Of a stretch of 64,000 nt of DNA, positions 33,043-39,752 are shown piece after piece. The stretch is from NCBI GenBank assembly GCA_051439505.1, contig JBFRWI010000100.1:32001-96000 (forward strand). The letters are read 5' to 3'. A program made the translations under genes and the position numbers. This DNA is from Hormoscilla sp. GTDB taxonomy: Bacteria > Cyanobacteriota > Cyanobacteriia > Cyanobacteriales > Desertifilaceae. A model generated the notes under the pieces. It saw only the letters and a program-made list of their open reading frames with translations. It was not told the origin of the DNA and did not search any database. Position 1 is the first letter of the stretch, and each line of letters opens with the position of its first letter.

Positions 33043-33117
33043 TTGCCAATTACCCATACGCTCTTTGCTTAACTGTGTCATAATAGAAGCATTTTGAATA
33101 GCAAAAGCGAGGCACAG

Positions 33118-34395
33118 GTGAAAATTGCAGTCGTTGGCAGCGGAGGTCGAGAACATGCCATTACCAGAACTTTATTGCGATCGCCCCAGGTGGAACGAGT
33201 CTTCTGCATACCGGGCAATGGCGGCACGGCCACTACGGACCGCTGTCAGAACCTAGCTTTGGGGGTCGATGACTTCCCCGGCATCGGACAATTTTGCTCC
33301 GATAATCAGATATCCCTGGTAGTAGTCGGTCCGGAATTGCCTCTATCCCAGGGTATTACAGACTACCTACAACAGCAACAAATTCCTGTTTTCGGTCCCA
33401 CCCAGGCCGGGGCTCAAATTGAGTCCAGTAAAGCTTGGGCAAAAGCATTGATGGCAACAGCGGAGATCCCGACGGCCTTCGCTTCTGTATTTACAGATGC
33501 TAACACGGCGAAAGCCTACGTGCAAACAGGAAAACTCCCGATCGTCATTAAAGCAGATGGCTTGGCCGCTGGTAAGGGCGTTACCGTTGCTACTACTTTA
33601 GCAGAGGCAGAAGCCGCGATCGATGCTGCCATGACAGGTAAATTTGGGGCGGCGGGTTCGAGACTTCTAATTGAAGAATGTTTATATGGTCAAGAAGTCT
33701 CCATTCTCGCTTTAACTGACGGTCAAGCAATTATACCCCTATTGAGCGCCCAAGACCACAAGCGTATTGGCGAAGGAGATACGGGCCCTAATACTGGCGG
33801 TATGGGTGCCTATGCCCCCGCTCCCATTATTACCCCAAACCTGATGCAACGCATTCACAAAGAAATTCTTTCCCCTGCCGTGCAGGCAATGGCCGATCGG
33901 GGTATAGTTTACCGAGGCGTTCTCTATGCTGGTTTGATGATTACTCCCTCCGGGGATCCCAAGGTAATCGAATTTAACTGTCGTTTTGGCGATCCCGAAA
34001 TTCAAGCTATTCTCCCCCTCCTGGAAACTCCTTTAGCAGAAATACTCTACGCTACCGCAACTGGACGCTTGGCAAAAATAGGCCCGATAGCCTGGAAGGA
34101 GGAAGTATCTGCCTGCGTCGTCCTGGCAGCTAATGGTTATCCCGAAAGCTACGAGAAAGGTAAAGTAATTACAGGGATCGATCGGGCGGAAGCATCGGGT
34201 GCAATTGTCTTCCAAGCGGGCAGCAAACTGCAAGGAGAACAACTACTCACCAATGGCGGTCGCGTCCTCAACATTGTAGCAACGGACTCCACCTTTGAGC
34301 AAGCATTTGCCCGCGCATATGCTGCCGTAGACTGCATCGAATTTGCCGGTATGTACTGCCGACGCGATATCGGTCACCGCGTGATTAAACCATGA
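33118..34395 (+). CDS. purD: Phosphoribosylamine--glycine ligase
   Basis: VGSGGREHA, KADGLAAGKGV, QDHKR, EFNCRFGDPE. Confidence 0.97.
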   Translation: MKIAVVGSGGREHAITRTLLRSPQVERVFCIPGNGGTATTDRCQNLALGVDDFPGIGQFCSDNQISLVVVGPELPLSQGITDYLQQQQIPVFGPTQAGAQIESSKAWAKALMATAEIPTAFASVFTDANTAKAYVQTGKLPIVIKADGLAAGKGVTVATTLAEAEAAIDAAMTGKFGAAGSRLLIEECLYGQEVSILALTDGQAIIPLLSAQDHKRIGEGDTGPNTGGMGAYAPAPIITPNLMQRIHKEILSPAVQAMADRGIVYRGVLYAGLMITPSGDPKVIEFNCRFGDPEIQAILPLLETPLAEILYATATGRLAKIGPIAWKEEVSACVVLAANGYPESYEKGKVITGIDRAEASGAIVFQAGSKLQGEQLLTNGGRVLNIVATDSTFEQAFARAYAAVDCIEFAGMYCRRDIGHRVIKP

Positions 34396-34597
34396 CTGCC
34401 GTGATGTCTTCATCATATCACCCAACTAACAACTAACAACTAACAACGGGTGCATCTCAATGCATGGGCGTTAGCGCAGCGGCTGCTGCGCAGCCGCTAC
34501 GCTAACGCCCCTACATATATATTCGCTTGCGGTCCAGATGCACCCACTGACAACTGACCACTAACAACTGACCACTAACAACTGACCACTAACAGAT

Positions 34598-36712
34598 ATG
34601 AGCGCCTTACTAAAGAAGATTAGAGAAATTCTAGCAAACTGGTGGTCGGAGTTTACCCTCCAAACCAGATTGATGGCAGCCGCAACCTTGGCAGTAAGTT
34701 TAATTATGAGCGGTTTGACCTTCTGGGCAGTGAATAGCATTCAACTGGATGCCCGCCTCAGCGATACCCGCTTCGGTCGCGACCTGGGTCTACTTTTAGT
34801 TTCTAATGTAGCACCCTTCGTCGCCGAAGATAATCTTACAGAATTAGCTCGCTTTTCCCAACGCTTCTATGACACTACTGATAATATTCGCTATATGCTG
34901 TACGCCGATGTAGAGGGCAATATTTTCTTCGGAATACCTTTTTGGGAGTCGGAAGTGCATAGTTCCCTGACCATTCGGCGACGAATGCAATTACCGATAG
35001 ATTTCAGTCAGAATGGCCAGTTTCCCTTCGTCCGACAGCATCAGACCCCCTCCGGACAAGTCACCGATGTCTTCGTTCCGATTATACATTCAGATCGATA
35101 TTTGGGAGTCTTGGCCTTGGGCATTAATCCTAACCCGACTGCGGCCACCTCTTCCAATCTGACTCGGGATGTGACGATCGCGGTGTTTGTCTCGATCTGG
35201 GTAATGGTAATCCTGGGTGGAGTATTTAATGCCTTGACGATCACCAAACCCATTAAAGAATTGCTAGTAGGGGTGAAAAACATTGCTGCTGGGAATTTCA
35301 AGCAGCGAGTCGATCTCCCCTTGAGTGGAGAACTGGGAGAATTAATCGGTGGTTTCAACGAAATGGCGGAACGACTAGAACGCTATGAAGAACAAAATAT
35401 TGAAGAACTGACCGCTGAAAAAGTCAAGCTGGAAACCCTAGTATCCACGATCGCTGACGGTGCGGTGTTGCTAGATCCCGATTTACGGGTGATGCTAGTG
35501 AACCCCACGGCACAACGTATTTTTGGCTGGGAAGATAAATCCGTGCTAGGCTCTCAGGTACTGGATAAACTGCCCCCCCTCGTGCAGGTGAAACTGATGC
35601 GACCCCTGCATGAAATTGCCGCTGGGCTTATGCCCACAGCAACTAAGGATGGTGCCGAATTTCGCATCACTCTTACCGAACCGGTAAACCGGACCATCCG
35701 GATTGTACTGACAACTTTACTCTCCCACCGCGCCACGGGAGAAGAGTCCCTCTGTAAAAACTGTCTCCACGATCGGGAGGATACCTGTAGGTCCTCCGAT
35801 CGCCCCCATGTCACGGAATGCTTCCTGTACGAACATCATGCCAGCAATTATATAATCGAGCAATACCGGGAAAGCTTGAAGGGAATTGCCATCACCGTGC
35901 AAGACATTACTCGGGAAGTAGAATTGAACGAGGCCAAGTCCCAGTTTATCAGCAACGTCTCTCACGAGTTAAGGACGCCTCTATTTAATATTAAAGGATT
36001 TATCGAGACCCTTTACGAGTACGGCGAAGAACTCAGCCAAGTAGAACGTCACGATTTCCTGGAAACGGCCAACCACGAGACCGATCGCCTGACGCGCCTG
36101 GTAAACGACGTGTTAGACTTGTCCCGACTAGAATCATCCTGTCGGATCTATCATTTAAATTCCGTATACATCAGTCAACCTATAGAACAAACCCTGCGGA
36201 ATTGTCAGCTAAATGCGAAGGATAAAGGAATAGAACTGCGGCAGGAGATAGAACCGAATTTGCCCCCAATATTGGGAAACTACGACCTCTTGCTGCAAGT
36301 ATTCACCAATCTCGTGGGGAACGCCCTGAAGTTCACCGAACCCGGGGGGCGAGTAATGATTAGGGCCTATTTGTTAGCAGATGCCTTACCAGAACTAATG
36401 ATAGATCCTAAAGGACCAGCGGTGCGGATCGAGATCGCCGACACGGGAGCTGGCATTGACAAGCAGGACCAACAAGCGATATTCGATCGGTTTTTCCGGG
36501 TGGAGAACCGAGTTCACACCTTAGAAGGTACGGGTTTGGGTCTGTCGATCGTTAGGAATATAATAGAGAAGCATCAGACTCGGATCCAGTTAGTGAGTGA
36601 AGTAGGAGTAGGGACGACGTTCTGGTTCGACCTAGCGGTATATCAAGAAAAGGAGGTATCAGCAGAAGATGTCATTCCAGGGCGGGAATCTTACCTATCC
36701 GAGGTCTCGTAG
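34598..36712 (+). CDS. nblS: Sensor histidine kinase NblS/Hik33 (TM-HAMP-PAS-HisKA-HATPase) with an extra Cys-rich insert
   Basis: WWSEFTLQTRLMAAAT, SNVSHELRTPLFNIK, RVENRVHTLEGTGLGL; adjacent to purD. Confidence 0.95.
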   Translation: MSALLKKIREILANWWSEFTLQTRLMAAATLAVSLIMSGLTFWAVNSIQLDARLSDTRFGRDLGLLLVSNVAPFVAEDNLTELARFSQRFYDTTDNIRYMLYADVEGNIFFGIPFWESEVHSSLTIRRRMQLPIDFSQNGQFPFVRQHQTPSGQVTDVFVPIIHSDRYLGVLALGINPNPTAATSSNLTRDVTIAVFVSIWVMVILGGVFNALTITKPIKELLVGVKNIAAGNFKQRVDLPLSGELGELIGGFNEMAERLERYEEQNIEELTAEKVKLETLVSTIADGAVLLDPDLRVMLVNPTAQRIFGWEDKSVLGSQVLDKLPPLVQVKLMRPLHEIAAGLMPTATKDGAEFRITLTEPVNRTIRIVLTTLLSHRATGEESLCKNCLHDREDTCRSSDRPHVTECFLYEHHASNYIIEQYRESLKGIAITVQDITREVELNEAKSQFISNVSHELRTPLFNIKGFIETLYEYGEELSQVERHDFLETANHETDRLTRLVNDVLDLSRLESSCRIYHLNSVYISQPIEQTLRNCQLNAKDKGIELRQEIEPNLPPILGNYDLLLQVFTNLVGNALKFTEPGGRVMIRAYLLADALPELMIDPKGPAVRIEIADTGAGIDKQDQQAIFDRFFRVENRVHTLEGTGLGLSIVRNIIEKHQTRIQLVSEVGVGTTFWFDLAVYQEKEVSAEDVIPGRESYLSEVS

Positions 36713-37070
36713 AAAACAGTAGCGAAATAACTATTGCCATTGCTAGAGGCAAATGCTAACATCAATAAAGGGATGATTACTGTAGGTTGGGTTTCCGAAC
36801 TAAACCCAACCAGATGTTGCCGATCGGCTTGGCGAAGAAGGTATATTACCCGGGAGGCAGAGCCTCATTTTGACGTTCCCTACCAGAGACAGGGAACGAG
36901 ACAAGATCTCTCGGTTAAGGACATAGGTTGTCATTGCGAGGGGGGGGTCAACCGCGAGCAATTTATGGGAAATTGAGTCGCGCAGCGTTGCGAGGCACGA
37001 AGCAATCCCCCCCCCGAAGCAATCTCCCTGTTCGCTGCTTAACCGAGAAGTATTGGGGAACGAGATATGA

Positions 37071-37424
37071 TTACAAAGAGATCAGCAAGCTGAAGATTAC
37101 CAACCCCAGCAGCACTAACCAGGCCATATTCCGCCTGACCCATAATTTAATTCCTTGACTGCTGAAGATATTTCTGTTAAGATTGTACTCAACAATTGGT
37201 TCGGAAATATCTTGGTAGAGAGTACAATCTCTAGCATGGGGGCGTTGGGGAAAGTTACAGGTATCATCGGCGTGGTAAGTGCAACTGTTGCACAAAGGTT
37301 CGTCCCCCGTAGCGCGGTGTAAAGGGATGCCCGGATGACCGAATGCTTTCAGGACCAGACCGCAATGGGGACAGGTAACTGCTTGAGAATTGATAGATTT
37401 GTGACAGCGAGGACAATTGGACAT
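37071..37424 (-). CDS. Zinc-ribbon plus second Cys-cluster protein with C-terminal TM anchor
   Basis: CPRC...CPHC, KAFGHPGIPLH, CNSC...C...C, hydrophobic C-terminus. Confidence 0.85.
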   Translation of the reverse strand: MSNCPRCHKSINSQAVTCPHCGLVLKAFGHPGIPLHRATGDEPLCNSCTYHADDTCNFPQRPHARDCTLYQDISEPIVEYNLNRNIFSSQGIKLWVRRNMAWLVLLGLVIFSLLISL

Positions 37425-37466
37425 GAGATAATTGTGATCTTCTACGTTATTTATGTTAAGATATTA

Positions 37467-37803
37467 TATTAGACTGCCACTGACTTAAGGTGTCATTGCG
37501 AGGGGGGAGACAAAAAAAAATTTCCCGAGTAATACTAGCAAGCCCCCCTCGCAATGACAAATAGGATTTTGAGGGTGGTAGTCAGCGCTATTAGACTGCC
37601 ACTGACTTAAGGTGTCATTGCGAGGGGGGGGAATAAAAATAAATTTCCCGAGTAATGCTAGCAAGCCCCCCGAAGCAATCTCATGCCTAGTCGAAAACTG
37701 GAGATTGCTTCGGGGGCTTAACTCATAGTCAGACATAAGTTAACTATTGGTAGCCCCCCTCGCAATGACAAATAGGATTTTGGGGGCGGTAGTCAGCGCT
37801 ATT
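37467..37803. repeat. 122-bp tandem duplication built from the GTCATTGCGAG repeat
   Basis: TATTAGACTGCCACTGACTTAAGGTGTCATTGCGAG at ~37467 and ~37589. Confidence 0.85.
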
Positions 37804-37868
37804 CGACGCGGATGTGGTATGTTAAGATATCATATTAACGGCGACCCAGACCATCCAGAGGAACAGTC

Positions 37869-39752
37869 ATGATCTACTGTCTGAACCCGAACTGCTTAAA
37901 TCCTCAAAATCCAGATAACCATCGCTTTTGCCAGAGTTGCGGCGCGAAGTTAATCCCGCAATTGTTAAACCGCTTCGCTATTCTGGAAAGATTGGGGGAA
38001 GGAGGATTTGGCAAAACCTATCGGGCCACTGACGGCCATCGGATGAAGGCCAATTCCGTGGTCAAGCAGTTCGCCCCGGCCCCCGAAATGCAGCAGGCGA
38101 TGGGCAGCAACCCCCAACTGCGGGACAAGATGCTGGAATTGTTTGCCCGGGAGGCAACTCAATTGTTAGAATTGGGGCAGCATCCCCAAATTCCGGCTTT
38201 GTTTGCTTACTTTCAAGCGGACTTGCAATTGCCAGCAGGCACATATCCTTATTTATATCTCGCCCAGGAATATGTAGAAGGGGAGAACTTACTGCAAGCC
38301 TTGACACAGAAACAAGCTTTTGACGAAGCTGAGGTAAGGTCTATCTTAGCTGACTTGTTACCGATTCTGGACTTGATTCACAGTCGGGGAGTGATTCATC
38401 GGGATATAAAACCCGAGAATATCATGCAGCGTCGGAGTGACAAGAGATTGGTGTTGATTGATTTCGGCGTTTCCAAGCAAGCAACGGGAACGAGTCTGCC
38501 ACTCGGAAGTACCGTCGGCACTATGGGAAGTGGCAAAACGACAGCGGGAACACTGGGATACGCGCCACCGGAACAAATGCTTTACGGTAAAGCTTATGCT
38601 GCTAGCGACCTTTATGCCCTGGGGGCAACTTGCATTCATTTACTGACGGGAGAAAATCCTTTCTTTCTGTTTGAACCGATGGATAGTCGGTGGTTGTGGC
38701 AAGAAAGCTTGCAAAGGCAAGGAAAATCTGTCAGTCCCCAGTTAACTCAGGTAATAGAGGGCCTGCTGCGGGAAAAACCGAAGGACCGCTATCAGTCAGC
38801 TACTGAGGTATTAGCAGCATTAAACTCTAAGACAGGCCAGTCCGTTCCCTTATCAACTATTATTTCCATGCCCCGTAAAACGGGCGCTGCCCACCAGGCC
38901 AACCCTCAATCAAAGGCGAATACCTTGCCAACCTTTGAATTTGAAGTAGTGATAATAGACAAGGGAGGCCGAGAAACCAGCGATCGCCGTTTGCGGGCCG
39001 AATTTTATCGGGAAGACTTGGGAAATGGCGTGATACTGGAAATGGTCTCTATTCCCGGGGGCAAGTTTACTATCGGTTCTCCCGAAAGCGAGGTGGGACG
39101 ACAGAAAACTGAAGGTCCCCAGCGAGAAGTGACCATATCTCCTTTCTTTATGGGCAAGTTTCCCATCACTCAAGCCCAGTGGCAAGCGGTGATGGGCAAT
39201 AACCCATCTAAATTTAAAGGAGCAAATCGACCCGTAGAAAATGTATCCTGGAATGATGCGGTAGAATTTTGTCAGCAACTTTCCCGCAAGACCGGGAAAA
39301 CCTATCGCCTGCCCAGCGAGGCTCAATGGGAATATGCCTGTCGCGCTGGTACTACCACGCCCTTTCATTTTGGGGAGACAATTACTGCGGACCTGGCGAA
39401 CTACAATGGTATGAACACCTATGGCCAAGAACCGAAAGGATCGTATCGCGAACAAACCACCCCCGTCGGTTATTTCCAAGTGGCGAACAACTTTGGGTTG
39501 TACGACATACACGGAAATGTCTGGGAATGGTGTGCCGACCCCTGGCACGAGACCTATCGCGGCATTCTTGCCGATGGCAGCATTTGGGAATTTGGCGGCG
39601 ATGACTCATTCCGGATGCTGCGCGGCGGTAGCTGGGTCAACTATCCCGCGAATTGTCGCCGCGCCTATCGCGGTAGGAATTCTCCGGGCGACGGGAACAC
39701 CTTCGTCGGTTTGCGGGTTGTTGTTGGGGGTGCTGTTGTGCGGACTCTTTAA
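37869..39752 (+). CDS. Ser/Thr kinase (4-Cys N-terminal motif) fused to an FGE-sulfatase/CLec domain; likely DGR target
   Basis: YCLNPNC, GEGGFG, HRDIKPEN, DFG; RLPSEAQWEYACRAG, GNVWEW, RGGSW. Confidence 0.92.
   Translation: MIYCLNPNCLNPQNPDNHRFCQSCGAKLIPQLLNRFAILERLGEGGFGKTYRATDGHRMKANSVVKQFAPAPEMQQAMGSNPQLRDKMLELFAREATQLLELGQHPQIPALFAYFQADLQLPAGTYPYLYLAQEYVEGENLLQALTQKQAFDEAEVRSILADLLPILDLIHSRGVIHRDIKPENIMQRRSDKRLVLIDFGVSKQATGTSLPLGSTVGTMGSGKTTAGTLGYAPPEQMLYGKAYAASDLYALGATCIHLLTGENPFFLFEPMDSRWLWQESLQRQGKSVSPQLTQVIEGLLREKPKDRYQSATEVLAALNSKTGQSVPLSTIISMPRKTGAAHQANPQSKANTLPTFEFEVVIIDKGGRETSDRRLRAEFYREDLGNGVILEMVSIPGGKFTIGSPESEVGRQKTEGPQREVTISPFFMGKFPITQAQWQAVMGNNPSKFKGANRPVENVSWNDAVEFCQQLSRKTGKTYRLPSEAQWEYACRAGTTTPFHFGETITADLANYNGMNTYGQEPKGSYREQTTPVGYFQVANNFGLYDIHGNVWEWCADPWHETYRGILADGSIWEFGGDDSFRMLRGGSWVNYPANCRRAYRGRNSPGDGNTFVGLRVVVGGAVVRTL

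Follow-up and report, generated by a model that had tools for sequence, protein, structure and literature searches.

How did a sensor histidine kinase that is conserved from cyanobacteria to plastids (NblS, also called Hik33 or DspA; Ycf26 in plastids) come to carry 45 extra residues with four Cys in its PAS domain, and what might they add to the kinase? The locus that raises this question lies in a 64,000-nucleotide stretch of DNA, called the window here, and was singled out in an earlier note made from the sequence. In its accessible text, a recent review has the PAS domain proposed in redox sensing by NblS, with the mechanism open (PMC13421787). The available portion of a 2025 preprint describes NblS orthologues as being without additional domains by SMART annotation and NblS as being without redox-active Cys, and it favors signaling via the membrane and the HAMP region (bioRxiv 10.1101/2025.01.21.633742). 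The NblS of the window departs from the "no additional domain" description of that preprint in having a 45-residue Cys4 insert.

The NblS of the window and its PAS insert

The gene encodes a full-length NblS orthologue that scores 1105 bits against the NCBIfam equivalog NF045911 (cut-off 1000), is present in single copy in the genome, and has the same domain order as NblS/Hik33/DspA elsewhere, HAMP-PAS-HisKA-HATPase with the NblS-specific N-terminal region in front. As family traits, NblS/Hik33 kinases phosphorylate and dephosphorylate RpaB and associate with an RC47-like complex. It differs by the Cys4 insert in its PAS domain and is thus a variant of the family and not a non-member. For both NblS and the product of the neighboring gene, the closest named relatives are from Hormoscilla (91% and 89%). 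Coordinates are collected in Table 1. As an observation apart, the interval between purD and nblS (34422-34596) holds 7-nt tandem repeats and a hairpin with 27-bp arms (34460-34516).

Table 1. Features of the nblS locus (nucleotide positions in the window; residue numbers refer to the respective protein)
Feature	Position	Strand	Details
purD	33094..34395	+	upstream of nblS; context only
nblS/hik33 sensor histidine kinase	34598..36712	+	704 aa; NF045911 above cut-off
NblS domains			HAMP 212-261, PAS from 278, HisKA 446-513, HATPase 561-680 (residues)
PAS domain including insert	35423..35923	+	residues 276-442; core fold predicted intact
Inserted Cys4 module	35723..35830	+	36 aa, C386-x2-C389-x7-C397-x10-C408, last residue Tyr411; between last two PAS strands
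Variable linker of insert	35831..35857	+	9 aa
Neighboring gene (likely donor)	37071..37424	-	117 aa; N-terminal zinc ribbon, linker, Cys4 module, C-terminal hydrophobic helix
Neighbor's copy of Cys4 module	37215..37322	-	residues 35-70; inverted relative to nblS copy, ~1.4 kb away (inverted pair I8)
Neighbor's zinc ribbon	37362..37415	-	Cys4, 7, 18, 21; PF13248 25.8 bits, just below cut-off 27; absent from NblS copy

The earlier note had claimed 45 extra residues in a place where the usual NblS has none, and both parts of this claim were confirmed. The extra codons at 35723-35857 encode residues 376-420 and with them the pattern C-x2-C-x7-C-x10-C (Cys386, 389, 397, and 408) in the last hairpin of the PAS domain, a position at which each of the 23 insert-free PAS regions compared shows nothing but a short turn. 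The module aligns with residues 35-70 of the neighbor without gaps and with 18 of 36 residues identical (50%; BLASTP, E 2e-12), and the DNA of the two copies is also gap-free in alignment. The reported match with the neighbor and its four Cys therefore stands, except that the His of its Arg-Pro-His motif is not general (6 of 38 inserts and 7 of 51 neighbors). Both junctions of the insert, on which the claim depends, are spanned by a contig of run X5 from another study (35054-36668) and by a contig of run X11, an RNA library of a relative (35546-36538, ~90% alike). Because these contigs cross both junctions and the insert is found in other genomes, an assembly artefact is ruled out. The nblS insert and the neighbor are the only two convincing copies of the module in the 6.47-Mb genome, which likewise disposes of a mobile multicopy element.

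An AlphaFold2 model of the PAS domain with its insert gave pLDDT values of 80-93 for the PAS core blocks except one loop. The insert was placed between the last two PAS strands, which we take to be H and I in the usual PAS naming, at a pLDDT of ~50 that is too low for Cys geometry. At that same low confidence (~50), the first insert residues prolong strand H and the last Cys lies in a short strand; strand I runs directly into the linker to HisKA. Fold searches with this model returned PAS domains only (best Z 11.7, rmsd 2.6 over 110 residues), and the Pfam PAS match of NblS is above cut-off, the PAS fold being by prediction retained around the insert.

The module itself found no useful match in Pfam, NCBIfam, or PDB sequences, and the insert alone drew only DUF6248 from Pfam (E 0.06). 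The neighbor's N-terminal CxxC...CxxC comes near the PF13248 cut-off and so resembles the PF13248/PF12773 zinc ribbon families, whereas the captured part is the neighbor's second module, which has another spacing and alone matches neither family. With one CxxC, two single Cys, and no profile match, the module is not a zinc ribbon or DZR domain as these are defined. Among 1.84 billion representatives, 61 matches have the module alone in small proteins of ~50-120 aa, and it is therefore probably an autonomous mini-domain. ESM Atlas, queried with one standalone module protein, gave look-alike unnamed clusters with a few Chloroflexota and Planctomycetota records. Several further records deserve mention in their own right. 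Proteins P0175, P0176, and P0178-P0191 (47-121 aa) form a family made up of this Cys4 module, in many cases preceded by a hydrophobic helix, with no useful Pfam match and a likely origin outside cyanobacteria; P0172 has the module in a 274-aa protein ahead of a hydrophobic segment. In P0158, a single and possibly chimeric record, the N-terminus of the neighbor's family is fused to what is presumably an FKBP-type isomerase.

Distribution, conservation, and decay

The insert is a fixed trait of ~176 genomes from 26 genera and four families (f1, f32, f38, and f60 in our coding), in which it occupies the same site at near-identical length; the f32 share of this total was mostly matched by profile, with few members inspected residue by residue. 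It is present in 14 of 14 genomes of the window's own family, f1 (once interrupted by a contig end), and in 139 of 144 genomes of f32, or 126 of 127 of good quality and 15 of 15 genera. Four of the five f32 misses are genomes less than 90% complete, and the search of the fifth yielded no nblS at all. Family f38 contributes 19 genomes, a count of carriers and not a share of a family total, and f60, from another order, has the insert in 4 of 8. A profile of the insert and its junctions was run against 401 genomes of the order and 401 drawn from the class. It matched 58 of the former at a threshold of E<=1e-24, all from f1, f32, or f38, and direct inspection recovered two more carriers that had missed this threshold; it matched 10 of the latter, which added f60. 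The insert was not found in any other family searched. Among the NblS of other orders listed with a readable PAS end, 28 of 28 had the short turn and no insert. Given the short turn elsewhere and the insert in four families, the insert does not belong to the standard make-up of NblS, in agreement with the earlier note, and it is not local to one genome. Mapping across orthologues places it in those four families among the ones searched, a reach wider than that of a local oddity. The ~176 carriers, with f32 as an example, rule out a strain-specific or recent event.

Named carriers among database proteins, a set not matched to the coded families of the genome set, are Microcoleus vaginatus, Tychonema, Planktothrix agardhii, Limnoraphis robusta, Capilliphycus, Limnospira fusiformis, Oxynema aestuarii, Desertifilum, and Hormoscilla. 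Of 126 database matches, 120 were listed, and the long proteins among these all have NblS-type Pfam sets, and the Cys pattern is present in 104 of 104 long-PAS NblS proteins, which were found with a query that itself bears the Cys. An Arthrospira orthologue is listed without comment in the accessible part of PMC2853384. Literature searches, with subscription papers on Hik33 subdomains outside their reach, returned no description of the insert or of the neighbor.

All four Cys and the final Tyr are invariant in the 38 inserts compared from the four families, at a mean between-family identity of 0.46 (range 0.36-0.55, with exposed positions strongly diverged). The four Cys are also invariant in 51 of 51 neighbors, and the Cys codons alternate between TGT and TGC. 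Gly6, Arg27, Pro28, Glu32, and Tyr36 of the insert module are well kept (33-38 of 38), while three residues found in all 51 neighbors have partly been lost from the inserts (Tyr16 kept in 13 of 38, Asp19 in 7, and Ala30 in 23). Retention of the fold-core residues together with drift at Tyr16 and Asp19 favors a metal core over a shared binding face. When dN/dS was pooled over ten within-genus groups, the module gave 0.144, about eight times the value of the DHp region (0.018). The strand before the module gave 0.047, the PAS front 0.142 (raised by one misregistered group), and the linker 0.255 (raised by another group). With invariant Cys, a dN/dS of 0.144, and carriers in four families, the old and selected insertion proposed in the earlier note is well founded.

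Conservation of the Cys does have exceptions, so that the note's expectation of Cys kept among insert-bearing orthologues applies to the 38 inserts compared and not to every carrier lineage. In genus g193 (f60), the insert site of all four genomes holds a shorter remnant that lacks Cys. Among five low-scoring f32 genomes inspected, one of genus g83 has lost Cys3 and another of the same genus has a shortened last spacing. These losses indicate that the module is dispensable in some lineages, and the g193 remnant indicates that it is lost by decay and not by clean excision. Judging from this type of loss, it is unlikely that the many families now showing the exact ancestral turn ever contained the insert. 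Because g193 tolerates a Cys-free loop, the Cys elsewhere are probably kept for more than protection of the fold. Two separate peculiarities of nblS were seen in these comparisons: the NblS of the f60 carriers (L095-L098, 4 of 4) has a Pro-rich extension with one Cys in the ATPase domain, and the nblS of L221 (G536, a genome 72% complete) has an in-frame TGA in the PAS region that is possibly a sequence error.

The neighboring gene and the origin of the insert

The neighbor, labeled "zinc ribbon domain-containing protein" in the database, is transcribed convergently with nblS. Its linker ahead of the Cys4 module has a conserved Lys-Ala-x-Gly-His-Pro-Gly, and its C-terminal hydrophobic helix is a predicted membrane anchor. 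A model of the protein was poor (pLDDT 61, with low confidence at the Cys4 module); Foldseek with this model gave no match at E<=0.001, and the model is too poor to inform on the fold. Promoter and terminator scans of the locus gave nothing informative. The gene is flanked at 36770-37060 and 37460-37810 by several families of short repeats, both direct and inverted. In other runs, contig depth over them is very high, which marks them as dispersed multicopy repeats. Beyond these, 37869-39752 encodes a Ser/Thr kinase joined to a domain of the FGE-sulfatase type and bearing a Cys motif at its N-terminus. Fusions of this type are a common architecture in cyanobacteria.

The insert was likely copied long ago from this adjacent zinc ribbon gene, as judged from sequence comparison. 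The module profile matches 276 of 401 genomes of the order, so the neighbor's family is wider than the insert, and one homologue is named from Anthocerotibacter; the gene is older than the insert. Both genes are present in 20 insert-free genomes, and in 11 of these they converge within 2 kb; they also adjoin in four genomes of other orders. Neighbor-type flanks are kept on both sides of the insert, and some carriers retain the neighbor's Gln-Asp after the module's Tyr. Since the genes converge, the two module copies form an inverted pair, of the kind that a template switch or some other local inverted duplication would leave. An insert resembles foreign neighbors about as closely as the neighbor in its own genome, and there is no sign of ongoing gene conversion. 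Of the local exchange suggested in the earlier note, then, derivation from the adjacent gene is supported and continued exchange is not. The widespread NblS variant that arose by this old, selected domain capture is real and apparently unreported. Module copies have multiplied elsewhere too, in tandem duplicates of the neighbor-type module in f36 (G077:C42:78582-79087, G228:C108:57021-57635, and G293:C13:45402-46004) and in additional copies in G001 and G194.

Whether the capture happened once was approached through trees. The shared boundaries make a single event likely. One clade of carriers is not rejected for NblS without the insert columns (p-AU 0.148), for RpoB+RpoC2 (0.628; a quick backbone tree with deep branches unresolved, on 29 of 30 genomes, one being dropped for missing rpoB), or for the module (0.903). 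The free NblS tree requires 4 changes, at least 2 of them forced by well-supported branches, and one clade appears in 0 of 200 bootstrap trees. Left out of the trees were 8 near-duplicate or truncated f1 rows, other close duplicates, 2 further rows, and 9 long branches. Lateral spread or repeated capture is possible, and in the accessible parts of PMC13659356 and PMC13492139 the tree of these families is not settled. Two frames in the backbone set, L217 (G078 rpoB, 1349 aa) and L186 (G017 rpoC2, 1588 aa), are ~200 aa longer than those of relatives, which suggests insertions such as inteins.

The earlier note had also raised the idea that the shared module pairs the kinase with its membrane-anchored neighbor. 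A coupling of this sort, or a fusion that internalized an ancestral interaction, would agree with the old adjacency across orders and with the predicted membrane location of both proteins. However, the standalone gene was found in only 24 of 37 carriers (f1 11 of 14, f32 9 of 10, f38 4 of 9, and f60 0 of 4). It was not found in the other 13, two single-contig genomes included, and it adjoins nblS, the synteny that the note proposed to check, in 8 of the 37. The genes are also convergent and form no operon, and RpaB (HLR1) sites are not enriched upstream of 49 neighbors (mean best score 11.4, against 11.5 for shuffled sequence). With the Tyr/Asp surface drifted as well, an obligate pair appears unlikely, an optional or ancestral interaction is possible, and pairing as the explanation of the module is very improbable. 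Separately, five f38 genomes (L064, L067, L070, L074, and L075; genera g40, g54, and g69) share a fifth conserved Cys, located in the linker, and they are also the five of f38 that yielded no standalone gene; they form one branch and so count as a single observation.

What the module may do in NblS

The explanation we favor, to which we give a probability of roughly 0.4, is that the insert folds around Zn2+ and adds a thiol-redox or metal input that tunes NblS. Here, we infer the Zn ligation and any regulatory effect, and the site in the PAS hairpin is a prediction of the model. The first and last strands of the module would prolong the PAS hairpin, whose second strand enters the helix to HisKA. 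If the Cys4 site were oxidized or lost its metal, this hairpin would loosen, and the loosened hairpin would bias NblS between phosphorylation and dephosphorylation of RpaB, an input that would add to the membrane/HAMP route proposed for all NblS. We prefer a metal input because the Cys core and a few fold residues are kept and not a surface, because the Cys persist in 26 genera though g193 tolerates a Cys-free loop, and because the insert sits on the strand feeding the output helix. Cys4-Zn centers are able to act as redox switches, as in Hsp33. Against the Zn-redox reading are the decay in g193 and g83, which makes the module dispensable in some lineages, and the analogies that Cys4 Zn sites are usually structural and that the 2025 preprint favors membrane/HAMP signaling.

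Two characterized kinases offer points of comparison, here as far as the accessible text of the sources goes. Staphylococcus aureus WalK is also a membrane kinase with a cytoplasmic PAS domain and a lineage-restricted site on it, for metal in WalK and putatively so here, and its PAS matches the NblS PAS model (4mn5, Z 8.3). Zn2+ on the WalK PAS lowers kinase activity (PMC6624279). As described there, however, the WalK site is made of His/Asp/His/Glu on the PAS surface and has moderate affinity, whereas NblS has a separate inserted Cys4 module with Cys as candidate ligands. Hik2/CSK is likewise a cyanobacterial kinase, and the sensory domain of Hik2 with its Cys-bound cofactor links electron flow to transcription (PMC13421787), but Hik2/CSK is soluble, has a GAF domain with a [3Fe-4S] cluster, and shows no family match to the module.

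These comparisons also frame the rival explanations. A purely structural Zn module, which would provide a docking or dimer-clamping surface on PAS and sense nothing, is in keeping with the statement in PMC6624279 that Zn sites of four Cys are as a rule structural and of high affinity, and with the retention of Gly6, Arg27, Pro28, Glu32, and Tyr36 alongside the Cys. Divergence at the exposed positions would be unusual for a conserved binding face, however, and we consider this explanation rather unlikely. The four invariant Cys within 23 residues could instead hold an iron-sulfur cluster and make NblS a direct electron or oxygen sensor in the manner of the Hik2 Fe-S GAF domain, Hik2 being reported in the available text to bind [3Fe-4S] (PMC13421787). 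This is quite improbable, as the module matches no Fe-S family or solved chain and the neighbor's other Cys domain is a zinc ribbon. Decay in two genera, a dN/dS far above that of the DHp region, and the fact that most cyanobacteria manage without the insert would all suit a tolerated passenger that was fixed in an ancestor and keeps its Cys only so that the loop stays folded and the kinase unharmed. Yet a Cys-free loop is viable and the module nevertheless persists in 26 genera, and a mere passenger is decidedly unlikely. Returning to the metal-input reading, a fuller version of it, that an undescribed metal-thiolate mini-domain captured from the neighbor rewired the central photosynthetic stress kinase throughout a filamentous branch to read cytoplasmic redox or metal directly, is possible but doubtful.

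The locus also exemplifies, in clean form, the capture of a domain from an adjacent gene. It may serve as a marker by which to group the carrier families, and it gives access to a mini-domain absent from the catalogs and to an uncharacterized cyanobacterial membrane protein. How NblS senses redox state and signals to RpaB is, in the accessible text of the 2026 review, perhaps the most significant open mechanism (PMC13421787). In the natural variant, mutation can be aimed at four defined residues, and the module can be moved into model strains. Its filamentous carriers include taxa of importance in soil crusts, in blooms, and in food production (named ones are Microcoleus vaginatus, Planktothrix agardhii, and Limnospira fusiformis, the last from the spirulina genus), and if the insert does bind metal, it would give them a redox or metal input that laboratory model strains lack. 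If real, a metal-thiolate site here would be without precedent as a cofactor site among NblS/Hik33 proteins, and the module would then stand for a small sensor family of its own, new and with standalone members outside cyanobacteria.
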